Below are positions 1 to 10,642 of a stretch of DNA of 10,642 nucleotides, in pieces (positions within the stretch are counted from its first letter, which is position 1; each line of letters starts with the position of its first letter). The stretch is from positions 1-10,642 of the forward strand of contig JACPCX010000098.1 in NCBI GenBank assembly GCA_016184305.1, in the 5' to 3' direction. The DNA comes from Candidatus Rokuibacteriota bacterium (GTDB taxonomy: Bacteria > Methylomirabilota > Methylomirabilia > Rokubacteriales > CSP1-6). The notes beneath the pieces are model-generated. The model worked only from the letters and a program-made list of their open reading frames with translations, did no database searches and was not told the origin of the DNA. Position numbers and translations under genes: made by a program.

Positions 1-2
1 TC

Positions 3-74
3 CCCAAGGAGAGAGGGGAGTTCGAGTTCGCCTGCCAGATGGGCATGTTACGCGGCAAGATTGTGGTGGAGTAG
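3..74 (+). CDS. Cupredoxin-domain protein, C-terminal end (5' partial, runs off the window)
   Basis: Manual translation from base 3 gives PKERGEFEFACQMGMLRGKIVVE*. The GxFxFxCxMGMxxGxIxV ending is typical of Cupredoxin_1/CupA-like Cu-binding domains. Stop TAG at 72-74, 7 nt before the next ATG. Confidence 0.8.
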   Translation, partial: PKERGEFEFACQMGMLRGKIVVE

Positions 75-81
75 CCAGCAG

Positions 82-990
82 ATGCGACTCGTACCGTCCT
101 TCGCGATTGCCCTGCTGACGGTGACGGCGGCCTCCGCCCAGCCCGAGGCCGTCGAGGTTCATCACATCCACGGGCTTTCCTTCGATCGGCGTGAACCCGG
201 GGCGCTCCTGGTGGCCACGCATACAGGGCTTGCGCGAATCCGGCCCGGCGTGAATCCAGAGTGGGTCGGCGCAAGCCGATTCGATCTCATGGGCTTCACG
301 GTGCCCCCGGCTAGCCTTGGGATGCTCTACGCGAGCGGCCATCCTGATCTCGTCGCCTACCGGAACGAAGGCCACGGGAACCTCGGCTTGCTCCTGAGCC
401 GCGATGGCGGCCGGACCTGGGAGGGTGTGGCTCTGAAGGGCCAGGCGGACTTTCACGCGCTCACATACAGCCCGGACCGCGGGGGAGAGCTCTTCGGCTG
501 GAGTGTCGCCGGGCAAACCGGTCTTCATCGCATCTCGACCAAGACATGGGCAGCGGAGCGGCTCCCTGCCCAGGGCCTCAGAGACGTCTTGGCCCTGGCG
601 GCCAGTCACGACCTGCCGAGCCGACTGCTGGCCGGCGCGCCGGGCGGCCTCCTGCTGAGCCAAGACCGGGGTCTGAGCTGGCGTCCGGTCTCAGGTATCC
701 CGCGTGATGTCCAGGTGACGGCAGTGGCGTTCAGTCCCACCGAGAAGAGGCGCGTGTACGTCTACGTTGCCCGTGCTGGCTTTGGCCTGATGCGCAGCGA
801 CGATGCCGGCGCGACGTGGCGACCGACCGGGCTGGCGACGCCGCCCAGCCAACAGGTGATCGCCATCGCACCAGGGCCCGCCGGCAAGGTGGCGGTCGCA
901 ACGACAGTTGCGTCCGTGTTTGCGTCAGCTGACGGAGGGCAGTCGTGGAGACTCGTGCTCGACAGGGGGCGTGTCCCCACGACCCGGTGA
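82..990 (+). CDS. Secreted beta-propeller (BNR/Asp-box repeat) protein, F510_1955-like family
   Basis: ATG at 82 gives a Sec signal peptide (MRLVPSFAIALLTVTAASA/Q). Motifs HHIHGL, LLVATHTGL, DLMGF, YASGHP, DFHAL, and four Asp-boxes (SRDGGRTW, SQDRGLSW, SDDAGATW, SADGGQSW). The track start at 61 overlaps the upstream gene. Confidence 0.85.
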   Translation: MRLVPSFAIALLTVTAASAQPEAVEVHHIHGLSFDRREPGALLVATHTGLARIRPGVNPEWVGASRFDLMGFTVPPASLGMLYASGHPDLVAYRNEGHGNLGLLLSRDGGRTWEGVALKGQADFHALTYSPDRGGELFGWSVAGQTGLHRISTKTWAAERLPAQGLRDVLALAASHDLPSRLLAGAPGGLLLSQDRGLSWRPVSGIPRDVQVTAVAFSPTEKRRVYVYVARAGFGLMRSDDAGATWRPTGLATPPSQQVIAIAPGPAGKVAVATTVASVFASADGGQSWRLVLDRGRVPTTR

Positions 991-1184
991 TCGGTACCGC
1001 CCGGAAGGCTCACACGGAGGTCTCACAATTGAGAGCGTACGGGGGCTCTTCTTGTGAATCTCACGCAACCCCGGGGCCGGTGAAACCGGCTCGCGGAGTG
1101 ATGCGGAAAGGGGGTGGGTGACGGTCTACGCGGCGTGACAAATGCTCTGCTGTGACTCATGCTGTCAATTGGAGGTCCGGACTG

Positions 1185-1493
1185 ATGCAGGTGATGAGGA
1201 TGATGGCGGTGGTGATGCTCGTGGTCGCCGTGGCGACGACGGGGTACGCCCAGAGCGGAGCGATGGCTCCTGAGCAAATGAAGATGATGAGCGACCAGAT
1301 GAAGACGATGAGCGACCAGATGAAGGGCGGGAAGATGGCCCCCGACCAGATGAAGATGATGGGCGAGCACATGCAAATGATGGCCGATCGGATGAAGGAT
1401 GGCCAGATGACCCCTGACCAGATGAAGAAGATGAGCGAGCACATGAAGATGATGACCGAGCACATGAAAGGCAAGATGAAGGGCAAGATGTAG
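1185..1493 (+). CDS. Small secreted methionine-rich repeat protein, putative Cu(I)/Ag(I) binder
   Basis: GGAGG at 1171-1175, ATG at 1185, 22-aa signal peptide ending TGYA. The 80-aa mature part has 24 Met, 3 His and no Cys. Confidence 0.85.
   Translation: MQVMRMMAVVMLVVAVATTGYAQSGAMAPEQMKMMSDQMKTMSDQMKGGKMAPDQMKMMGEHMQMMADRMKDGQMTPDQMKKMSEHMKMMTEHMKGKMKGKM
1263..1478 (+). repeat. Three tandem 72-nt (24-aa) intragenic repeats with nested 21-nt (7-aa) periodicity
   Basis: Units start at 1263, 1335 and 1407: MAPEQMKMMSDQMKTMSDQMKGGK / MAPDQMKMMGEHMQMMADRMKDGQ / MTPDQMKKMSEHMKMMTEHMKGKM. gatgagcgaccagatgaag recurs at 1286 and 1307. Confidence 0.9.
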
Positions 1494-1518
1494 TCGTTCG
1501 CCCGAGACACGCATTGCG

Positions 1519-1563
1519 GCGGTCCCTCGATGGGCGATGGGGTGTCGCCCGTCGGGGGACCGC
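1519..1563 (+). terminator. Strong 19-bp hairpin downstream of the Met-rich gene (terminator or mRNA 3' stabiliser)
   Basis: gcggtccctcgatgggcga (1519-1537) pairs with tcgcccgtcgggggaccgc (1545-1563), with two G-U pairs and a 7-nt loop. No immediate U-tract; ttcttt lies about 10 nt later. Confidence 0.65.
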
Positions 1564-1872
1564 GAGCCTGCATTCTTTATGAACGCCACCAGTGATCGTG
1601 ACGCAACCCCGCAGAGCGTTGTGGGCGCACGTTGGGGCGCGACGACGGCGCCCCGAGCAGTACTCCAACCAGTGAGAGGCCGGAGCCTCTGACCAGGCGC
1701 CCCGGCCGCTCGTGAGAGGGCGAAGATCTGCCCGTGAGGAAGGAAAACGGCATGCGTCGACGACGGATGGCATGGGGTCGTGTGGTGATGGGACTGGGAG
1801 TATGGGCGCGCTCCGAAGCGCGGCCACGAGGGAAGTTCCGTGCCCGCGGATTCCCCGGAGATCTGGTTCAGT

Positions 1873-1950
1873 GAGCTGGCGGGGCGCGTCGTCTTCGTGA
1901 CCGGAGACAGCCCGGACCTTCGAACGAAGGGGTTCCTCGAGACTCGGCAT
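1873..1950 (+). pseudogene. Possible relic of a response-regulator receiver domain (C-terminal part)
   Basis: The frame reads ELAGRVVFVTGDSPDLRTKGFLETRH, resembling the 'R(I/V)VF(I/V)TGD...T..FLE' beta4-alpha4 segment of receiver domains. It has no convincing start and no KP motif. Confidence 0.3.
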
Positions 1951-1966
1951 CCGAGGGGAGCTGCGA

Positions 1967-1995
1967 TTGACAGCCCTGAGACGCCGTGGTAAGCC
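1967..1995 (+). promoter_or_regulatory. Candidate sigma-70 promoter for the leader/exosortase operon
   Basis: Perfect TTGACA at 1967-1972, a 17-nt spacer containing the extended -10 TG at 1987-1988, and -10 TAAGCC at 1990-1995. The next ATG is at 2018. Confidence 0.5.
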
Positions 1996-2017
1996 GAAGG
2001 CACACTGGGATGCGCGC

Positions 2018-2281
2018 ATGAAGCGATTTCTCGTGATTCTCTTTGTGTGTCTGCTCGGAGCAGGGGTCGCGGGCTGCGCGCTGCATCCCGACGGCCTCCT
2101 GGGCGACCAGTCCACGGCGGGCGTGGCGCACGGACCGGCGTGCGCCTACTCGCTCACCGCGACGGCGTTCGCCGCCCTCCCGGTCTTGCCGTTCGCCGAA
2201 TGGCTGGTGCGTCCCGGCCGGCTCCCGCGCCTGCCGATCCGGGCGGGCTCGCTCTTCCAGCCCCCGGAGCACTCCGCGTAG
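2018..2281 (+). CDS. Small exported protein / putative regulatory leader with C-terminal FQPP motif (DUF2946/CruR/CutF-like architecture)
   Basis: 87 aa from ATG 2018: MKR plus hydrophobic signal with possible lipobox VAGC, then CxxH (C20,H23), HxxxC (H38,C42), and a Pro-rich C-terminus ending GSLFQPPEHSA. It lies directly after the candidate promoter. Confidence 0.65.
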   Translation: MKRFLVILFVCLLGAGVAGCALHPDGLLGDQSTAGVAHGPACAYSLTATAFAALPVLPFAEWLVRPGRLPRLPIRAGSLFQPPEHSA

Positions 2282-2430
2282 TTCTCGCTGAGGCTGGCGT
2301 CCCGTCGCCTCGACCGGGGACGACCGGCGCCTGACACGCGTCCCCGTTCTTCGCTGGATCCGAACGCTTATCGGGGCCTTCTTCGCCCGGCGTAACCGGC
2401 CGTGCGTGTGGCCCCGCGGAGGTGAGAGAG

Positions 2431-3300
2431 ATGACCTTCGGGCACCACGGTCGAGCGGTCCCGCGGCCGGACCTGGCCCCTTGGGCCTGGCTGGGTCTGG
2501 GAGTGGCGGGCGTCTTCGTGGCCTACGCCCCGGTGGTCCCTTCCATGGTTGCCGAGTGGGTGGAGTTCCCGAGCCTCTCGCACGGATTCGCCATCCCGCT
2601 CATTGCGGCGTTCCTCGTGTGGGGTCGCCGCGCCCGGATCGCGGCTGAGCGTGTCGGGACTTCGGCGATCGGGATTCCGCTGGTGGCGCTCGGGCTCATG
2701 CTCCTGGTAGTCGGTTCTCTGGGGGGCGAGTCTTTCCTGGCCCGGGTCTCATTGCCGCTGACCCTGCTCGGCACCGTGCTGTACCTGGCCGGCCCCGGGG
2801 TGACACGACACGTCTGGGCAGGGATCGCCTACCTGATCTTCATGGTTCCGCTCCCGTTCGTCATCTTGAAGCCATTGACCTACCAGTCGCAGCTCTTCGA
2901 CGCGACGCTCACCGCCAGGGCCCTCCCGTGGCTGGGCGTGCCTGTCCTGCAGGAGGGAATCTTCCTGCATCTCCCGAACATCAGCCTGGAGGTCGCGCCG
3001 GATTGCAGCAGCGTGCCGGCCATCGCAGCCCTGGCGGCCCTGGGCGCCGCGTATGCTCAGTTGAAGCCCCGCCCGGCATGGATCCGGGTGCTCCTCGTCG
3101 TCGCAGCAGTTCCGCTGGGGCTGGGCTCGAATCTCGCCCGCATCATCCTCACCGCGCTCAGCGCGTACCACTTCGGTCGAGCCGCCCTGGACAACGTGGT
3201 CCACATGTTCAACGGGACCACGGTATTCCTGGCGACGGTCGCATTGCTGGTCGTCCTCGACACCGTCTTGCTCCGGCTCGACCGGACGAAAGCAGGATAG
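2431..3300 (+). CDS. Exosortase (EpsH/archaeosortase family) polytopic membrane transpeptidase
   Basis: GGAGGTG at 2418-2424 then ATG 2431. About 8 hydrophobic segments, motifs SHGFAIP and FMVPLP, and the catalytic triad Cys (VAPDCSS, 3004), Arg (NLARI, 3139), His (VHMFNG, 3202). Confidence 0.92.
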   Translation: MTFGHHGRAVPRPDLAPWAWLGLGVAGVFVAYAPVVPSMVAEWVEFPSLSHGFAIPLIAAFLVWGRRARIAAERVGTSAIGIPLVALGLMLLVVGSLGGESFLARVSLPLTLLGTVLYLAGPGVTRHVWAGIAYLIFMVPLPFVILKPLTYQSQLFDATLTARALPWLGVPVLQEGIFLHLPNISLEVAPDCSSVPAIAALAALGAAYAQLKPRPAWIRVLLVVAAVPLGLGSNLARIILTALSAYHFGRAALDNVVHMFNGTTVFLATVALLVVLDTVLLRLDRTKAG

Positions 3301-3306
3301 GGGTAC

Positions 3307-3954
3307 GTGGGCTGGCGTGCGTCGATGGTGCTGCTCCTCATGGCGATGGCTTTCGGGGTGATTGCACTTGTGCCGCCGGTCCAGGACGGTGACCGCGGCT
3401 TCGGGGTGAACGCCATTCCGGCCAGCCTTGCGGGCTGGGCGGCCACGGATGGGGCTCCCGAGGAAGCGTTGCCGAGGGACCCGAACGAGACGGTGTCGTT
3501 CCGGCGCACGTATCGGGAGGGCGACAGGGTCGCCTGGGTGTCCGTGGCGTTGTTCGTGCGGCAGGACGACCCGAAGCGGAGGGCCTCCCTCAACCTCGTT
3601 CACCCCGAGGCGAACGCGAAGCGGATCGAAGGGATGAGGGTCCCGATCTCGCTGACGGGGCCTGCGGACACCTCCGTGACGCTGCCGGCGAAGGTCATCC
3701 ACACGGGCGAAGGCCGGCTGCTGGTGGTCCACTGGTATCAGATCGGCGGTCGGATCTATGGCAGCGAGTACTGGTACCGGCTGGCGCTCTTGCGTGATGT
3801 CCTGGTCGACCGGCGGGCCGACACGGTACTGGTGCGAATCGCGGCTCCGGCGGATCGAGGCGGGCCGGAGGGAGCCCTCCGTGTCGTCGCGACCCTGGCG
3901 CCGCCCCTCTACGCTTCGGTGAGCGCCGCGCTGGCCGAAGGTCGTGCGCGATGA
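3307..3954 (+). CDS. epsI: Exosortase-associated EpsI-family protein
   Basis: Starts 6 nt after the exosortase stop. N-terminal TM/signal, IPASLAGW, RRTY, VHWYQIGGR, SEYWYRL and RRADTVLVRI match the EpsI pattern. Confidence 0.85.
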   Translation: MGWRASMVLLLMAMAFGVIALVPPVQDGDRGFGVNAIPASLAGWAATDGAPEEALPRDPNETVSFRRTYREGDRVAWVSVALFVRQDDPKRRASLNLVHPEANAKRIEGMRVPISLTGPADTSVTLPAKVIHTGEGRLLVVHWYQIGGRIYGSEYWYRLALLRDVLVDRRADTVLVRIAAPADRGGPEGALRVVATLAPPLYASVSAALAEGRAR

Positions 3955-4211
3955 CGTACGTGGCGCAGACTCGCTATGTGGATCGCGCCCTTGCCATGGA
4001 CCCGGACAATCTCCACGCACTCTGGGTCAAGGCCGTGAGCCTGTTCGAGGCCAGGGCCCACTACGCCGAGTCCATTCCGGTGTGGGAGCGTTTTCTCGGG
4101 CTGGTGCCGGAATCCACCACGGACGCCGCCACCGCTCGTGGTTATGTCTTGCGGGCCAGGGAGCGGCTCAGGGGCGCGCAGAGGCCAGCCCCGGGAAAGG
4201 GATCGCCATGA
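3951..4211 (+). CDS. Short TPR protein (CcmI/NrfG-like C-terminal repeats), probably truncated
   Basis: ATGA overlaps at both ends. YVDRALAMDPDNLHALWVKAVSLF..HYAESIPVWERFLGLVP is TPR-like. No signal or TM segment. Confidence 0.6.
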   Translation: MTYVAQTRYVDRALAMDPDNLHALWVKAVSLFEARAHYAESIPVWERFLGLVPESTTDAATARGYVLRARERLRGAQRPAPGKGSP

Positions 4212-4726
4212 GCAACGGGCAAGAGCGTCGCATCAAGAAGGACAGGAAACACCAGGAGCGGCTGGCTGCCGAGCGGCGAAGGGGGCGTGGACGGATCGCG
4301 AAACGGTGGGGCCTCTACGCGGCCGTAGGCCTGCTGGTCGTCGGGGGCGGCGGCGTGCTTGTCACGAAGGCAGTCACGGCGAAGATCTACCCGCCCACGG
4401 GCATGAATCCCCACGTCGAGTCCTACCCCGCGTGCCGGATCTGCCCGTCGTCGATTCCCGAGGAGATGCAGCGGCACATCCTGGAACACCGGGAGCCGGG
4501 AGGACCTGACGACCGGCCCGGCATCATCGTCCAGTACAGCTGCAGCGCCTGCCCCGAGGTGGTCGCGAAGTTGACGCGCATCGTGGAACGCTATCCCAGG
4601 GGCGTCTACCTTGCGCCGTACCCGCGGATGAGTCCGCGCGTGGCGCTGACCACGCTCGGCGTGCTCGAGGCCATGGAGGACGTCGATGAGAGCCGCATCG
4701 TGGCGTTCATCCAGAAACATCTGTGA
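4208..4726 (+). CDS. Membrane-anchored DUF3105-like protein with two CxxC motifs
   Basis: ATG 4208 overlaps the upstream stop. Basic N-terminus, one TM helix, then HILEH, GIIVQYSCSACPE, YLAPYPRM, VALTTLG and IVAFI, typical of DUF3105. Additional CRIC motif. Confidence 0.75.
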   Translation: MSNGQERRIKKDRKHQERLAAERRRGRGRIAKRWGLYAAVGLLVVGGGGVLVTKAVTAKIYPPTGMNPHVESYPACRICPSSIPEEMQRHILEHREPGGPDDRPGIIVQYSCSACPEVVAKLTRIVERYPRGVYLAPYPRMSPRVALTTLGVLEAMEDVDESRIVAFIQKHL

Positions 4727-4756
4727 GAGAGAACGCCTGTGCATGGAGGACATCGG

Positions 4757-5851
4757 ATGAATGAGATCGCTGCACGAGTGACGCAGGTGCTGCTCCTCAC
4801 GGGGTTGCTGCTGGGGATCCTTCCCGCCGCGGCCCAGGCGGAGACACCCGACCCTCACGCGTACCTCACGGCTGCGGCCGTCCGGAAGATTCCTCGCCTC
4901 CCGGACACCGTGGTGATCAGGCCCACCGGGCGAACCCGCGAATACACGCTCGACATCCGGCCGGGGCCGTGGGAGCCCGCGAAGGGGGTCATTGCAGCGG
5001 CCATCACCATCAACGGGACGGTGCCGGGGCCCGTGATCCGCGCGGCCGAAGGCGACAGGGTCGTCGTGACGGTGAAGAACAACCTGGAGGAGTCCACCGC
5101 GATTCACTGGCACGGGCTTCACGTGCCCAACGCGATGGATGGGGTGGAGGGTCTCACCCAGGAGGGGATCAACCCCGGCCAGGCATTTCGATACGAGTTC
5201 CTCGCCAGCCACGCGGGCACCTTCATGTACCACTCCCATTCCCATGCGCGGTCCGTGGAGCAGATCGACGCCGGCCTGTACGGGATGTTCATCATCGACC
5301 CCCAGAATACCCGGGGGCATCCGAGGTTCGACCGGGAGGTGCTCATGATGCTCTCCGCCTGGGCCATCGCCGATGGAGGCGGACACGGCGCCACGCCGGG
5401 CGGCCATGGCAACGCGATGGCGGGGATGGCGTACAACTACTTCACCATCAACGGCAAGGCGTATCCGGACACGCCGGAGTGGACGGTCAAGAAGGGTGAG
5501 GTCGTGCGGGTGCGGATCGCCAACGTGTCGAACCTCATCCATCCCATGCACCTGCACGGGCACGACTTCGCGGTCCTGGCCAAGGACGGGGAACCGCTGA
5601 AGAACCCCCAGCCGATGAACACCGTGAACGTGGCGCCTGGAGAGACCTATGACATCGCGTTCGTCGCGAACAACCCAGGCGCGTGGATGTTCCACTGCCA
5701 CGAGCTTCACCACACCATGAACGGCTCGAGCCAGCCAGGCGGCCTCATCCAGATCATCCGCTACGAAGGTGGGCCGCCGCCAGCTCAGCCGAGCTCGGCT
5801 CCGCGCCCGGCGCCCCCGTCCGGGGGCGGAGGCCGCGGGCGCGGTCACTGA
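4757..5851 (+). CDS. Two-domain multicopper oxidase (small-laccase-like, type B)
   Basis: GGAGG at 4745-4749, ATG 4757, signal peptide ending AAAQA. Motifs HWH (5105), YHSH (5228), HPMHLH (5540), HCHELHH (5693). The T1 Cys is present only in domain 2. Confidence 0.92.
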   Translation: MNEIAARVTQVLLLTGLLLGILPAAAQAETPDPHAYLTAAAVRKIPRLPDTVVIRPTGRTREYTLDIRPGPWEPAKGVIAAAITINGTVPGPVIRAAEGDRVVVTVKNNLEESTAIHWHGLHVPNAMDGVEGLTQEGINPGQAFRYEFLASHAGTFMYHSHSHARSVEQIDAGLYGMFIIDPQNTRGHPRFDREVLMMLSAWAIADGGGHGATPGGHGNAMAGMAYNYFTINGKAYPDTPEWTVKKGEVVRVRIANVSNLIHPMHLHGHDFAVLAKDGEPLKNPQPMNTVNVAPGETYDIAFVANNPGAWMFHCHELHHTMNGSSQPGGLIQIIRYEGGPPPAQPSSAPRPAPPSGGGGRGRGH

Positions 5852-5920
5852 TGCCGTCTACCCCGCCTCCCGTCAGGCTGACCGACCTGGTCGTTGCTGT
5901 CGATGGCGCTGTGATCGTGA

Positions 5921-6085
5921 GCCGCCCTTTCCAGTTCTCTCGGGGTCAAGGGCGATGTGATCGTCCTCGCGGACCCGGTCACGTCGGGTCAGGTCGCCGC
6001 GGCCGTCGTGCTCGCGGCCGCTGGGCTGCTGCTGATGCAACCGTGTCGAAGCCACCCCTCTCGGGAGAGTGAACATGACACGTGA
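5921..6085 (+). pseudogene. C-terminal fragment of a membrane protein, possibly Lgt-family
   Basis: The frame reads ...GVKGDVIVLADPVTSGQVAAAVVLAAAGLLLMQPCRSHPSRESEHDT*. This resembles the 'F.RGD....T..Q + final TM helix' end of Lgt. In-frame stop upstream at 5918-5920. Confidence 0.3.
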
Positions 6086-6376
6086 GCGCGCGTCCGTGCG
6101 CTGTACGAAGAGTTCAAGAGCCGCGGCTTCGTCCTGCTGCTTGTGAACATGGGGGAGGGTCCGGAGATGGTCCGCCGGGCGGTGAAGGCGCGGGGCTACA
6201 CCGCGCCCGTGCTGCTGGATGTCGACCGAGAGGGGTCGGATGCCTACGCGGTCACTGCTACGCCGACGGTGTACGTCCTGGATCGAAGCCTCCGCATCGT
6301 CGGCCGGGCGATCGGGCGGCGCGACTGGGCGTCGGAGCCGGGTCGCCGGCTGATCGCCGCGCTGCTCAAGCCATGA
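6075..6376 (+). pseudogene. TlpA/ResA-like redoxin lacking its N-terminal half and CxxC
   Basis: 6095-6376 reads RALYEEFKSRGFVLLLVNMGE...PVLLD...YAVTATPTVYVLDR...GRAIGRRDW, a typical TlpA C-terminal half. No WCxxC in any + frame upstream. Orphan RBS and ATG at 6075 are out of frame. The stop overlaps the ccdA start. Confidence 0.75.
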
Positions 6377-7104
6377 ACATCTCGATGCTGGTCGCTGGCA
6401 GTGCGGGGCTCCTGTCTTTCCTTTCCCCCTGTGTGCTCCCGCTCGTTCCGTCGTACCTGGCGTTCGTCGCGGGGGCGTCCTTCGGCGACCTTCGGGGCCG
6501 CCCCGACCGGGTCGTCCGGAAGGCGGTGGTGCTGAATGCCCTGGGCTTCATCCTGGGATTCTCCCTCGTCTTCATCACGATGGGTGCTGCCGTCACCCTG
6601 CTCGGGGGGTGGCTGATCGGATACCGTGGGATCGTGCAGAAGGTCGGTGGGGCGCTCATCATCCTCTTCGGACTGTACCTGATCGGGATCCTCCGGCTGC
6701 CCTTCCTGATGCGCCAGTTCCACATGTCCCTGTCGGCCAAGCCGGCGGGGCTCCTCGGGTCGGTCGCGGTCGGGATCACCTTTGGCGCAGGCTGGACCCC
6801 CTGCGTGGGCCCGGTTCTCGGGGCCATCCTGACCCTCGCGAGCACCACAGAGACGGTCGGTGACGGAATCCGCCTCCTGGCCGCGTATGCGGCCGGGCTC
6901 GGGGTGCCGTTCCTGCTGAGTGCCTTGGCCGTGGACCGGTTCAGCGTGTTCTTCAGGCGGTTCCGGCGATTCCTCCCCGTGGTCAACCGCGTCGCCGGGG
7001 CGGTGCTGGTGGGCGTGGGGCTCCTGCTCGTGCTGAACTACATGACCATTCTCAACGCCTACTTCATCAGTCTGACGCCGGAATGGCTTCTGGAGCGCCT
7101 GTGA
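6373..7104 (+). CDS. ccdA: CcdA / DsbD-beta transmembrane disulfide electron transporter (cytochrome c biogenesis family)
   Basis: ATGA-coupled start at 6373. Motifs AGLLSFLSPCVLPLVPSYL and GWTPCVGPVLGAIL, with about 6 TM helices. Confidence 0.95.
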   Translation: MNISMLVAGSAGLLSFLSPCVLPLVPSYLAFVAGASFGDLRGRPDRVVRKAVVLNALGFILGFSLVFITMGAAVTLLGGWLIGYRGIVQKVGGALIILFGLYLIGILRLPFLMRQFHMSLSAKPAGLLGSVAVGITFGAGWTPCVGPVLGAILTLASTTETVGDGIRLLAAYAAGLGVPFLLSALAVDRFSVFFRRFRRFLPVVNRVAGAVLVGVGLLLVLNYMTILNAYFISLTPEWLLERL

Positions 7105-7140
7105 CAGCGCCTCAGGCCCCACGAGGAGGCCCCTGTCTCC

Positions 7141-7242
7141 ATGCCGCAGGGCGAGAGATGCACACGGCTGACCCTAGTGGTGCTCCTCGTGCTGGGGCTC
7201 GCGTCCGCGGCACTGGGGCAAGAAAGGCTCGTGGTCGTTTGA
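7141..7242 (+). pseudogene. Signal-peptide-only stub of a secreted protein
   Basis: GAGGAGG at 7123-7129, ATG 7141, MPQGERCTRLTLVVLLVLGLASAALGQERLVVV*. It ends exactly where the copA-like sequence begins in another frame. Confidence 0.45.
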
Positions 7243-7738
7243 GGCGGCTCTTGGCGCGGTCCCCGGAGTCGCCGACGCCAGCCTGCCCCGGTCCTCGGGC
7301 GCCGTCTTCGTCCAGTACGATCCCCGCCGCGCCGACACGCGGGTGCTCCATGCGGCGCTCCAGGCGACGGGCTACCGCACTGGCAGCGCGAGGATCCGCT
7401 TCCACATCCAGGGCGTGACGTGCGCGTCCCGCGTGAGCCGCATCGAGGCGGTGGTTCGCGGCACCCGCGGCGTGCTCAGCGCCCACGTCAGCCTCGCGAG
7501 CGTGGAGGCGCTGGTGGAGTGCGTGCCGGCGCCCACGGACCTCGCCGGAGTGAAGTCCGCGGTCGCTGCGGCAGGCGACGAGGTGGCGGAGAGGTCGCCG
7601 CCCGCCGGCGAGACGGCGCTGGACCGCGAGGCCGAGGCGCGCGAGCGGGAGTCCCGGACGCTCATGCACCAGGGGTCGTTCGGCGCCGCGGTGGGCGTCT
7701 TCAGCATGATCATGAGCGACCCCTCGCCGCCGATGTGA
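7241..7738 (+). pseudogene. copA: Degenerate N-terminus of a Cu(I)-exporting P1B ATPase: partial HMA1, mutated HMA2, linker, first TM
   Basis: Reads EAALGAVPGVADA...VQYDPRRAD...AALQATGY, then IQGVTCASRVSRIE (GMTCASC degraded), and DREAEARERE.RTLM...AAVGVFSMIMS before a stop. No ATPase domains follow. Confidence 0.8.
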
Positions 7739-7899
7739 CGGGCGTCATACCGCAGCCCTCCGGCCTCACCCCACGATGTCGGTGAGAACCCGGTGGCGCC
7801 GCCCCAGTGGGATCGAGGTGCCACAGCAGCCCTGCGAGGGGTCGCCGCGAAGCCAGCGCAACTGCGTGAAAAGAAATGGTGCAGCCCCCTGGCGATCGA

Positions 7900-7915
7900 G
7901 GGCATGAACCCTGCA
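7900..7915 (+). promoter_or_regulatory. Candidate sigma-54 (-24/-12) promoter
   Basis: GGGCATGAACCCTGCA versus consensus TGGCACG-N4-TTGCW: GG at 7901-7902, GC at 7913-7914, exact 10-nt spacing, 42 nt upstream of the ATG. Confidence 0.6.
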
Positions 7916-7957
7916 AGGGCTCCGGAGAGCTACAGACCCCTGGACGAGGAGGGTGCG

Positions 7958-10642
7958 ATGGACCGACGGCGGTTTCTCGAGATGGCAGCCCTGGCCGGCC
8001 TCGGGAGCGTGGCGACCCCGGGGGACCTGCTGGCGCAGTATCGCTTCCTCGACCCGGTGAGGGTCGAGAACCCGCTGGCCCAGTACCCGCACCGGGACTG
8101 GGAGCGGATCTACCGCGACATTTTCCGTCACGACCGCACCTTCACCTTCCTCTGCGCCCCCAACGACACCCACAACTGTCTCCTCAAAGGGTTCGTGAAG
8201 AACAACGTGATGGTGCGCATCGAGCCGACCTATGGCTACGGCAAGGCGACGGACCTCTCCGGCAACCGGGCGTCATCCCGCTGGGACCCCCGCTGCTGCC
8301 AGAAGGGGCTCGTCCTCGGCCGGCGGCTCTACGGCGACCGGCGCGTGAAGGGCGCCTTCGTGCGCAGGGGCTTCAAGGAGTGGGTGGAGCGCGGTTTCCC
8401 GCGGGACCCGGCGACGGGGCGGGCGCCGGCCGAGCTGATGAAGCGTGGGTGGGACAGCTTCGCGCGCGTGCCGTTCGCCGAGGCTCATGCCCTCCACGCC
8501 AAGGCGCTGGACAATATCGCGCGTAGCTACGGAGGTGAGCAGGGGAAGCGGTATCTCCTGGCCCAGGGGTATGACCCGGCGATGGTGGATGCGGCGGGCG
8601 GCGCGGGCGTCCGGCTCCTGAAGTTCCGGGGCGGCATGGGCAAGCTCGGCGTCACCCGCATCATCGGCACCTATCGCATGGGCAATATGCTGGCGCTGCT
8701 CGACAGCCGCGTGCGGGACGTGGGGCCCGACAAGGCGGTGGGCGGCACCGCCTGGGACTCCTACTCGTGGCACACGGACCTGCCACCGGGCCACCCGATG
8801 GTGCTCGGGGATCAGACCTCGGACTGGGAGCTCTTCGCCGCCGAGAACGCCAACCTCATCGTGGTCTGGGGGATGAACTGGATCACGACGAAGATGCCGG
8901 ACAGCCACTGGCTCACCGAGGCGCGGATGAAGGGGACGAAGGTGGTGGTCCTCACGGTGGAGTACAGCGCCACCGCCAACAAGGGCGACGAGGTGATCGT
9001 CATCCGCCCTGGCACCGACCCCGCCTTCGCGCTCGGACTCGCCTCCGTGATCGTGAGCGAGAAGCGCTACGACGTGGACTTCGTCAAGCGCTTCACCGAC
9101 CTGCCCCGGCTGATTCGCATGGATAACCTCCAGCCTCTGCTCGCGCGGGACGTCTTCCCCGGATACAGGGAGGCGGAGCTGATCAACTGGATCCGCATCG
9201 TCAAGCCGGGCCAGCGGATCGAGCCGACGCCGCTCCAGAACGGCATGCAGCTGCCCGAGGCGATGCGCGGAGATTTCGCCGACTTCGTGATGTGGGACGG
9301 GCGGAGCGGCACGCCGGTGGCGGTGACCCGCGATCTGGTCGGGGATCGGTTCACCGGGACCGGGATCGAGCCGGCGCTCGAGGGGACCTTCGAGGTGGCG
9401 CTGGCCGACGGCAGCCGCGTCCAGGCCCGCCCGGCCTTCGACCTCACCCGCCAGTACCTGACGGAGACCATGACGCCGGAGGCCGTCTCCAAGATCACCT
9501 GGGCGCCAGCCGAGGCCATCGTCTCCCTGGCGCGGGCCATCGCCGCCAACCGGGGTACCACGCTGTTCCCGGTGGGCATGGGCCCCAACCAGTTCTTCAA
9601 TAACGACCTGAAGGATCGCGCCATCTTCCTCGTGGCGGCGCTGACGGCGAACATCGGCCAGCCCGGCGGCAACGTGGGCTCCTATGCCGGGAACTATCGC
9701 ACGTCGCTCTTCTCCGGGCTGCCGCTGTACGTGTCGGAGGATCCGTTCAACCCCCAGCTCGCCCCGGACGGTCCCGTGAGCGTCAAGGGCTACACTCGCT
9801 ACGAATCGCTTCACTACTACGCGGCGGGCGAAGTGATCCACCGGGAGGGGAACAAGCAGTTCACCACCGGCGCGCACGTGCCCACGCCCACCAAGGCCAT
9901 CTGGCTCAGCAACTCCAACTCGCAGATCGCGAACACCAAGTACCACTACAACGTGGTCTTCAACACCCTGCCGCGTCAGGAATGCGTGGTCGTCAACGAG
10001 TGGTGGTGGTCGGGCTCGTGCGAGTATGCCGACATCGTCTACGGCGTGGACTCGTGGATGGAGTTCAAGTACCCTGACATGACGGCCTCCAACACCAATC
10101 CGTTCCTCCAGGTCTTCCCGCGGACGCCGCTGCGGCGAAACTTCGGGACGGTGAGCGATCTCGACACCTACACGGGCGTCGCCGCGGCGCTGACCGCGCT
10201 CACCGGCGACCGCCGCTTCATCGATTACTGGAAGTTCGTCACGGACAACCGCGTGGACGTGTACCTCCAGCGGATCCTCGATGCCAGCGCTCCCACCAAG
10301 GGCTACAGCATCCGGGACCTCGAGGCCTTGGCGGCCCAGGGGATCCCGGCCCTCATGAACACACGCACCTACCCGCGCACCTTCTCCTGGGAGCAGGTGC
10401 ACGAGTCCAAGCCCTGGTACACCAAGACCGGGCGGCTGGAGTTCTACCGGCCGGAGCCGGAGTTCATCGAGGCCGGCGAGAACCTCACCGTCTACCGGGA
10501 ACCGGTGGACTCGACCTTCTATGACCCGAATGCGCTGGTGGCACGGGCGCACCCGGCGATCCGGCCCATGACGCCCGAGCAGTACGGCTTCGACCGCGCC
10601 AAGCGCGACTGGTCCGCCCGCCAGGGGCGCAACGTGGTGCTC
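7958..10642 (+). CDS. nxrA: Tat-exported Mo-bisPGD oxidoreductase alpha subunit, periplasmic nitrite oxidoreductase/nitrate reductase (NxrA/NarG)-like; 3' partial
   Basis: GAGGAGG at 7946-7952, ATG 7958, and 895 open codons to the window end by manual translation. Tat motif [23 protein letters not shown]0 motif CAPNDTHNC...RCCQKG, KFRGGMG, Mo-ligand Asp in [19 protein letters not shown], and [11 protein letters not shown]. The symbol denotes family resemblance, not proven function. Confidence 0.92.

Follow-up and report, generated by a model that had tools for sequence, protein, structure and literature searches.

What is the role of a small, secreted-looking bacterial protein in which close to a third of the residues are methionine (Met)? 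This question is raised by an open reading frame (ORF) of a Candidatus Rokuibacteriota bacterium (GenBank assembly GCA_016184305.1). It lies on contig JACPCX010000098.1 and was analysed here as part of a stretch of 10,642 nucleotides (positions 1 to 10,642 of the forward strand, hereafter the window). An earlier note on this DNA had proposed a three-helix bundle with a thioether-lined core that would store copper or, alternatively, a Met sink that scavenges oxidants. We favour another reading, with a probability of roughly 0.6, namely that the Met-rich protein is a periplasmic Met/His buffer for Cu(I) and Ag(I), similar to PcoE and SilE in its action and unrelated to them in sequence. The strongest evidence for a role in copper handling is the context of the gene.

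The repeats described in the earlier note were reproduced from the translation. The full chain of 102 residues contains 29 Met (28.4%), and the mature part, 80 residues from Q23, contains 24 (the 30% that had been claimed), in addition to 13 Lys, 7 Gln, 7 Gly, 6 Asp, 4 Glu and 3 His; the count of Cys is 0, also as claimed. Three repeats of 24 amino acids, MAPEQMKMMSDQMKTMSDQMKGGK, MAPDQMKMMGEHMQMMADRMKDGQ and MTPDQMKKMSEHMKMMTEHMKGKM (residues 27-50, 51-74 and 75-98), each open with M-x-P-[DE]-Q and have Met at positions 1, 6, 9, 13, 16 and 20 in all three cases. Three features had been missed: additional Met at repeat positions 8 and 15, the three His, and the fact that Met is the only hydrophobic residue, the mature protein having no Leu, Ile, Val, Phe, Trp or Tyr. 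In a heptad register with position 6 as 'a', Met occupies a, d, a, d and a, the additional Met fall on c, and the His, at repeat positions 12 and 19, fall on g, which is filled by either His or Gln. Met and His thus line a single continuous side of the helix, with the polar residues on the opposite side; the spacings M9-x-x-H12, H12-x-x-M15 and M16-x-x-H19 are present in repeats 2 and 3. The one-sidedness of Met is modest in each helix, being reached by 0.022, 0.087 and 0.019 of shuffles, and since the three helices are duplicates these values are not independent tests. The mature protein has a mass of 9.26 kDa, an isoelectric point of 9.5, a grand average of hydropathy (GRAVY) of -1.10 and 30% charged residues.

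This composition is extreme for the genome to which the window belongs (G000, 3.2 Mb). With 20 Met in its best window of 60 amino acids, the protein ranks first among 19,214 ORFs of at least 50 amino acids, and the mean Met content of likely genes is 2.4%. The next Met-dense ORFs of this genome have 16 and 14 Met per 60 amino acids. These two, C103:14518-14901 (+), which is L098:3019-3399, and C70:14823-15440 (-), which is L099:3027-3641, also look secreted; they have MMGG/GMMGGG runs, no Pfam match and no copper context, and one adjoins FAD oxidoreductases, the other a CcmH gene.

The N-terminus of the Met-rich protein reads as a Sec-type leader, in line with the secretion proposed earlier: R5, a hydrophobic run of 14 residues (MMAVVMLVVAVATT) and small residues at -3/-1, with predicted cleavage between G-Y-A and Q-S. 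A G-[YH]-[ASG]-Q at the end of the leader is kept across the family.

The Met-rich ORF is a real gene under purifying selection. The G+C content at third positions (GC3) of its non-ATG codons is 0.88 in frame versus 0.48 and 0.29 in the other frames, and GC3 of the neighbouring genes is 0.77-0.86. Among 27 distinct genes with a mature part of 80 amino acids (335 pairs), the median ratio of nonsynonymous to synonymous substitution rates (dN/dS) was 0.235, with an interquartile range of 0.14-0.36, and it was 0.36 without shared ATG codons. The core of the central repeat, MKMMGEHMQMMADRMKDG, is nearly invariant including its non-Met residues. In 69 sequences the near-invariant mature columns are E39, H40, M41, Q42, M43, M44, A45, D46, R47, M48, K49 and G51, and the non-Met residues His40, Glu39, Gln42, Ala45, Asp46, Arg47 and Gly51 are kept in at least 90% of them. 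Conservation thus extends beyond composition, as would be needed by a specific site or fold and not by a mere supply of Met.

The gene neighbourhood was compared in 91 related loci, 11 from genomes and 80 from metagenomes, in which neighbours were called by tblastn (E <= 1e-6) using reference proteins labelled by Pfam or NCBIfam. A gene of a strict copper set, consisting of copper ATPase, multicopper oxidase, HMA, cupredoxin and YHS/DUF2933, was found within 3 kb in 35 of the 91 loci and over the whole available locus DNA in 40, so homologs are linked to metal loci as the earlier note had anticipated. At least one gene of a wider set (copper P-type ATPase, multicopper oxidase, cupredoxin, DUF302, F510_1955 propeller and outer-membrane factor) was present in 71 loci. 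The commonest immediate neighbour is a DUF302 gene, which occurs within 3 kb in 34 loci and always directly upstream. Within the same distance we counted a P-type ATPase in 24 loci, a membrane-anchored cupredoxin_1 in 15, a relative of the F510_1955 propeller in 13, an outer-membrane factor in 11, a multicopper oxidase in 10 and an extracytoplasmic function (ECF) sigma factor in 6. All 133 neighbour matches within 3 kb share the strand of the Met-rich gene, which is usually the last in the row. The four ATPases tested exceed the cut-off of the copper-translocating P-type ATPase family TIGR01511 (591-611 bits versus 397). There are only 5 matches to the copper ATPase family and one multicopper oxidase gene in the genome of the window, and chance adjacency should therefore be rare (by our own estimate about 2% of the genome is that close). 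The DUF302 neighbour (e.g., L007:2788-3192) has about 135 amino acids and no signal peptide, which points to a cytoplasmic component of the copper cassette that is still uncharacterised.

Searches for relatives point to a small, unnamed family that matches no characterised one. Pfam and NCBIfam searches at E <= 10 returned only chance-level rows (DUF4818 at 0.017, Ppl at 0.02). A profile search of the PDB gave a regulatory coiled coil of protein phosphatase 1 (PP1) as its best match (E 0.006), which we judged compositional. Together with the comparisons to PcoE given below, these negative results agree with the prediction that no known family would be matched. Within the family itself, a word-indexed search of 5.8 billion clusters yielded 48 family proteins among 72 candidates, an exhaustive phmmer search of 1.84 billion proteins gave 37 representatives at E <= 0.001, and a profile search gave 75 family proteins among 2,351 candidates. 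The ESM Atlas contains the Met-rich sequence, in a cluster of its own with 111 members. From the related loci we obtained 66 complete genes encoding 62 distinct proteins, with mature lengths of 52-86 amino acids, 25-32% Met and 1-6 His. The number of repeats varies, with one-, two- and three-repeat forms, and no fused longer forms were found in a search of proteins of 257-2000 amino acids, which is weak evidence.

The 12 genome loci are labelled Rokubacteria/Methylomirabilota (6), 'uncultured bacterium' (3), Binatia (1), Opitutaceae (1) and, as a distant case, Rhodoferax (1). In the phylum of the window the gene is present in 13 of 251 species genomes (including the window's own) and in 8 of 68 genera. 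All these carriers fall into one taxonomic family, where the gene is found in 12 of 158 genomes when the window's own is left out, and two genomes have two copies. Such a patchy range fits an accessory gene of a resistance cassette. The Rhodoferax protein (L014:9905-10183, from a metagenome-assembled genome) is a lipoprotein with ERQKLMEEHMKLMEEHM that is 42% identical over 61 amino acids and is encoded in a non-metal context; the similarity may reflect convergence or very remote kinship, and the protein was too distant to be included in the family counts. Five of the 62 family proteins have a Cys-Cys pair, at the C-terminus in L037, L039, L046 and L079 and at the N-terminus in L012, in the contexts ..MMKCCMKGM or QCC at the mature N-terminus. 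These variants adjoin ECF sigma factor, oxidase or YHS-DUF2933 genes, and the pair may be an added thiolate metal site.

Does the protein fold into a bundle? Two AlphaFold2 runs, using 31 and 69 family sequences, predicted helices at mature residues 7-25, 31-50 and 55-77, each beginning at the Pro of M-x-P-[DE]-Q. The mean predicted local distance difference test (pLDDT) values were 74.8 and 74.7 and the predicted template modelling (pTM) scores 0.30 and 0.31, so that the packing of the helices is not confident. Foldseek found 0 matches in the PDB. The best rows of a wide structural search (VIA) by Z score (5.2) were long coiled coils with a root mean square deviation (rmsd) of 18-25 A, its best-fitting row was a two-helix hairpin (residues 28-80, Z 4.9, rmsd 3.9 A over 53 residues), and no three-helix bundle was matched in this search. 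Prediction of a homodimer from two copies scored 0.03 and 0.04 versus a mark of 0.42, values that decide neither for nor against a dimer. Of the three-helix bundle proposed in the earlier note, the three helices (pLDDT 75) are thus supported by prediction and the compact packing is not.

These results bear directly on the possibility that the three helices, in a monomer or an oligomer, pack stably around a Met-only core holding a row of Cu(I), as a thioether analogue of the Csp copper storage proteins. Any folded core would have to be made of Met, the sole hydrophobic residue; the Met at heptad a and d are conserved in every repeat and throughout the family, and the helices are equally long and joined by short linkers rich in Gly. 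A layer of three Met would also provide a CuS3 geometry, described as the most favourable for Cu(I) in PMC11840665. Besides the low pTM and the structural searches that matched no three-helix bundle, the natural one- and two-repeat forms argue against an obligatory three-helix unit, and the low GRAVY with 30% charged residues fits a disordered apo state. Furthermore, Csp proteins store copper, whereas the Met-rich gene is found in export and detoxification cassettes. We consider a stable storage bundle unlikely.

The same gene context is informative about the other suggestion of the earlier note. The protein could be a sacrificial sink whose Met scavenge hypochlorite, chlorite, peroxide or copper-driven radicals and are regenerated by periplasmic MsrP, in the way MrpX works with YedY/MsrP. 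Its composition fits this idea and is MrpX-like, MrpX being a small exported protein of Met and charged residues (PMC4436054). The genome of the window encodes an MsrP (386 bits versus a cut-off of 207, contig C146). In the window and in the loci L006 and L042, a gene for a NarG/NxrA-like molybdoenzyme shares a contig with the Met-rich gene. Enzymes of this type are able to convert chlorate to chlorite. Periplasmic Met is also oxidised under copper stress itself (PMC9302797). The recurrent neighbours, however, are copper pumps and oxidases, and an MsrP-like (Oxidored_molyb) gene was found near the Met-rich gene in 0 of the 91 loci (tblastn E <= 1e-6, with one reference protein only). MsrP of this genome is encoded on another contig, with no Met-dense ORF beside it. 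MrpX lacks sequence conservation, as stated in PMC4436054, in contrast to the central repeat of the Met-rich protein, in which non-Met residues, His included, are near invariant, and to its dN/dS of 0.24. Composition thus speaks for a Met-sulfoxide sink, while gene context and the conservation pattern do not, and we regard this explanation as improbable, and less likely than a copper buffer.

A further possibility is a chaperone or adaptor whose flexible, Met-lined face holds not metal but unfolded proteins or one specific partner, which could be the F510_1955 propeller, the oxidase or an efflux adaptor. Met-rich surfaces bind proteins in Spy, SRP54 and calmodulin, and the Met-rich protein has amphipathic helices with a pliable Met face. 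M-x-P-[DE]-Q may also resemble the LTXXQ motif, and the gene keeps its own conserved upstream block among varying neighbours. Nevertheless, neither LTXXQ (PF07813) nor another chaperone family was matched at E <= 10, conserved His beside Met are more typical of metal sites, and no partner is constant across the loci. This role appears very unlikely.

For the periplasmic Cu(I)/Ag(I) buffer that we favour, we infer export, metal binding, metal-induced folding and hand-off from the anatomy, conservation, selection, predicted helices and neighbourhood described above. In a diderm bacterium of the Rokubacteria/Methylomirabilota type, a small soluble protein of about 9.3 kDa would be exported by Sec to the periplasm. 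Each repeat of 24 residues would form an amphipathic helix with a wide Met face (a, c and d) flanked by His or Gln (g) and with Lys, Asp, Glu and Ser on the opposite face. Binding of Cu(I), and of Ag(I), would take place at the thioether/imidazole face in the periplasm; Cys would not last under its oxidising conditions, and the soft and durable thioethers of Met could serve as ligands instead. Each ion would be enclosed by several Met, contributed by a single helix or by more than one. Without metal the protein would probably be loosely structured, and it would become more helical and more compact upon metal loading. As product of the last gene of export and oxidation cassettes, it could buffer the Cu(I) delivered to the periplasm by a CopA-type pump and hold it, as a 'copper sponge', pending removal by the multicopper oxidase or an efflux system. 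This proposal is consistent with what PMC11840665 says of known systems, where tris-Met sites are favourable to Cu(I), the affinity increases with His, and the many weak sites of Met-rich domains make up a dynamic 'Cu sponge'.

A more ambitious version is that the protein folds only around the metal, its helices closing into an all-thioether core with a file of Cu(I), as a Met counterpart of Csp; it could also act in trans as the missing Met-rich domain of the oxidase, feeding it Cu(I). We think this rather doubtful.

Several observations weigh against the periplasmic copper buffer. The protein has only 3 His versus 10 in SilE/PcoE, and pure thioether sites are of low affinity (PMC11840665). 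In composition it is similar to MrpX, which scavenges hypochlorite, and an MsrP gene is present in the genome. Pfam, NCBIfam and PDB profile searches gave no homology to any protein with shown metal binding, and the comparison with a plasmid PcoE gave a BLASTP E of 0.082 and an hhalign probability of 0.4%. No neighbour of the wider set was found in 20 of the 91 loci; 14 of these have less than 250 nucleotides of upstream sequence, and L004, L010, L046 and L069 lack such a neighbour despite an upstream flank of at least 1.5 kb (L046 has an ECF sigma factor gene upstream). In the window the nearest copper gene is 3.2 kb away, beyond the exosortase/EpsI pair. DUF302 has no known function, so that much of the association with the wider set involves genes not proven to handle copper, and the F510_1955 propeller is likewise without proven copper function. 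Finally, the reference proteins for neighbours were drawn from the family's own loci, and many metagenome contigs are probably close kin, which means that locus counts are not independent.

The Met-rich gene appears to carry its own expression signals (Table 1), and the ribosome-binding site and downstream hairpin reported in the earlier note were both recovered. The TTGGAGG that includes the former is nearly invariant across loci. It belongs to a conserved upstream block of about 125 nucleotides, which accompanies the Met-rich gene whichever gene precedes it (in the window, and at the same position in L003-L097). The block contains GGAGG-TG, two GTGAC about 20 nucleotides apart, GTGTGACAGATG, ACCCATGCT and TTGGAGG. 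A structured RNA was rejected: RNAalifold predicted 0 pairs on 25 upstream-block sequences, and an Rfam scan of positions 950-1650 gave only sub-threshold chance rows, with the block itself empty at E <= 1. With 0 consensus pairs the block was treated as a DNA-level element, and its pattern of conservation suggests that it probably holds the gene's own promoter and operator, the direct repeats being perhaps an operator for a copper-responsive regulator. The candidate sigma-70-like promoter matches 8 of 12 consensus positions, below the threshold of the consensus scan, and in its -10 hexamer the second-place A and the sixth-place T are kept across loci. The consensus scan of the window called no promoter and no canonical terminator. 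A tiny ORF in the block (GTG ACG ... TGA) was discarded; its peptide is not conserved and its stop is absent in L023.

Downstream of the gene, the 92-nucleotide fold of the hairpin region has -55 kcal/mol (z -5.4), and 0 of 200 shuffles were as stable. Folds with z < -2, with a GC-rich hairpin after the stop, occur in 27 of 54 distinct family sequences, and the hairpin probably serves to terminate transcription or to stabilise the 3' end. Three sediment RNA libraries (three study codes of a single year, perhaps one campaign) yielded contigs that span positions 1172-1510 at 90-99% identity, and a fourth RNA run, X16, gave one contig only, on the upstream gene. These contigs are a weak hint of transcription of the Met-rich gene, because they show neither level nor ends and DNA may be present in RNA libraries, and the absence of contigs elsewhere in the window carries no weight.

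Table 1. Features of the Met-rich gene and of its surroundings in the window.
Feature	Position	Strand	Basis or remark
F510_1955-family BNR/Asp-box propeller, secreted	61..990	+	NCBIfam NF045728, 184.5 bits (cut-off 175)
Conserved upstream block	1060..1184	+	kept in alignments of 55-60 distinct loci
Candidate sigma-70-like promoter	1135..1163	+	conserved columns; -35 GTGACA 1135-1140, 17-nt spacer, -10 CATGCT 1158-1163
Ribosome-binding site GGAGG	1171..1175	+	9 nt before ATG; TTGGAGG nearly invariant across loci
Coding sequence of the Met-rich protein, 102 aa	1185..1493	+	stop TAG at 1491-1493; GC3 and dN/dS support
Putative Sec-type signal peptide, residues 1-22	1185..1250	+	sequence reading; predicted cleavage between G-Y-A and Q-S
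Repeat 1, residues 27-50, predicted helix 1	1263..1334	+	repeat reading; AlphaFold2 helix from Pro, mature 7-25
Repeat 2, residues 51-74, predicted helix 2; most conserved part, MKMMGEHMQMMADRMKDG	1335..1406	+	
Repeat 3, residues 75-98, predicted helix 3	1407..1478	+	repeat reading, AlphaFold2
Lys-rich tail KGKM after repeat 3	1479-1490	+	
Downstream hairpin, 20 bp (3 G-U pairs), 5-nt loop, no U tract	1519..1563	+	folding
Small lipoprotein-like ORF	after the Met-rich gene	+	
Exosortase and EpsI gene	2422-3954	+	top NCBIfam rows XrtW and XrtA, each under the cut-off
DUF3105 protein, immediately before the oxidase	4214..4726	+	Pfam PF11303, E 2.8e-8
Two-domain multicopper oxidase	4739..5851	+	Pfam Cu-oxidase_3/_2; sole Cu-oxidase_3 gene in the genome
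CcdA/DsbD-type thiol-disulfide transporter	6082..7104	+	Pfam DsbD_TM, E 7e-13
Remnant of copper P-type ATPase N-terminus, HMA domain, 131-aa ORF	7343..7738	+	Pfam HMA
Molybdopterin oxidoreductase alpha subunit, Tat leader RRRFLE	7793-10642, off contig end	+	type II DMSO (dimethyl sulfoxide) reductase/NarG-like group

Every gene of the window is on the + strand. The F510_1955 propeller has HHIHG in its N-terminus, and in the cassettes its gene sits between the cupredoxin and DUF302 genes. The exosortase and EpsI gene separate the Met-rich gene from the oxidase only in the window and in the near-identical loci L006 and L042. A PEP-CTERM substrate of this exosortase was considered and ruled out for the Met-rich protein; the C-terminus, KGKMKGKM, has no such motif. 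The ATPase remnant is 65% identical over 126 amino acids to the first 129 residues of the L007 ATPase, and its metal motif is CASR where the relative has CASC. Its ORF ends just before the molybdoenzyme gene and is thus a truncated remnant of a CopA-type pump gene. The molybdoenzyme scores below all curated cut-offs and is 99% identical over 277 amino acids to its counterpart in L006; we take it to resemble the alpha subunits of periplasmic nitrite oxidoreductases.

How Met-rich regions act in copper handling is still described as elusive in PMC11840665, and the best-studied examples are irregular inserts or His-dominated sponges. The Met-rich family offers a free-standing and highly regular natural model of 80 residues, with three heptad repeats and few conserved His, on which affinity, stoichiometry, metal-induced folding and sensitivity to Met oxidation can be measured. 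Our results also provide a working annotation for about 100 'hypothetical proteins' of uncultured Rokubacteria-type bacteria from soil, sediment and groundwater, and define a recurrent copper cassette of ATPase, membrane cupredoxin, F510_1955 propeller, DUF302 and Met-rich protein, in which the propeller and DUF302 members are themselves uncharacterised. A thioether core, if it exists, would add a new structural principle to metal storage and offer a template for the capture of soft metals; if the protein folds around its metal, this chassis would be a minimal and evolvable soft-metal capture module for an oxidising compartment. Among the 12 listed of 107 matches in our literature searches, 'methionine-rich' was not found together with Rokubacteria, Methylomirabilota or Nitrospira, and the matches on Met-rich copper helix-bundle proteins concerned known systems only.

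How does the Met-rich family compare with these known systems? In Csp1 and Csp3, which are Cys-lined four-helix bundles, many Cu(I) are held by soft ligands that point inward. The idea of such ligands inside a bundle of helices is shared, whereas the Met-rich protein has three predicted helices, 0 Cys and no confident bundle; the absence of Cys excludes membership of the Csp family. The M-x-P-[DE]-Q that opens each repeat presumably recalls the LTXXQ motif of CpxP, Spy and ZraP, and neither LTXXQ (PF07813) nor PF13801, which cover these proteins, was matched at E <= 10.

MrpX of Azospira suillum is likewise a small periplasmic protein composed almost wholly of Met and charged residues, at 20% Met and 44% charged residues (PMC4436054) versus 30% and 30% here. 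It differs in being co-transcribed with yedYZ (msrPQ) under SigF and poorly conserved, while the Met-rich family is well conserved, occurs in copper cassettes and has an MsrP-like neighbour in 0 of the 91 loci.

CopM of Synechocystis, a periplasmic Met/His-rich Cu(I) binder, is closer in setting. According to PMC4335983 it is periplasmic or secreted, helical, copper-induced and encoded near copper ATPase or resistance-nodulation-division (RND) genes. It is larger and differently built, with 196 amino acids, 23 Met, 8 His and two DUF305 domains with an H-H motif; the Met-rich protein has no DUF305 match at E <= 10 and no HH dipeptide.

The Met-rich domains of CueO and PcoA bind Cu(I) dynamically through a cluster of Met (and His) beside a cuprous oxidase, as set out in PMC11840665. 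The oxidase of the window lacks a Met-rich segment (at most 4 Met per 40 amino acids versus 12 in the plasmid PcoA), and a free-standing Met-rich module could serve instead. In CueO and PcoA the domain is an insert or loop of the enzyme, while the Met-rich protein is a separate, regular and predicted helical product, and its family adjoins the ATPase cassette in most loci, not the oxidase.

The closest parallel in action is with PcoE and SilE, periplasmic Met/His proteins that are disordered and become helical on Ag(I)/Cu(I) via i, i+3/i+4 motifs (PMC5008109); this transition from a loose apo state to a helical loaded state is the likely mode for the Met-rich protein as well. Both types are small, read as Sec-exported, have no Cys, and carry Met and His at i, i+3/i+4 on predicted helices, and their genes lie on the margin of operons for copper/silver export and oxidation. 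The setting of the Met-rich gene agrees with this, with a leader and with copper ATPase, oxidase and cupredoxin neighbours. PcoE and SilE have 10 His, about 8-12% Met and about 120 mature residues, compared to 3, 30% and 80 here; their ten conserved His lie in MxxHxxxxxHxxM and HxxMxxxHxxM motifs, of which the Met-rich protein has partial MxxH/HxxM spacings only. Membership of the PcoE/SilE family was rejected on NCBIfam, BLASTP and hhalign: the PcoE from the annotated pco/sil region of plasmid NZ_CP009466.1 (L017), used as positive control, matched NCBIfam SilE (NF047789) at 2.1e-44, and the Met-rich protein did not match it at E <= 10. A feature search of the Atlas placed the PcoE cluster nearest among the named ones (0.76), which we treat as a lead only. 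The Met-rich protein thus stands apart by its regular 3 x 24 amino acid heptad repeat, its different phylum and its lack of detectable homology. Periplasmic Met/His-rich binders of soft metals are known as a kind, and what would be new here is an unrelated family with a distinct, extreme and regular architecture.

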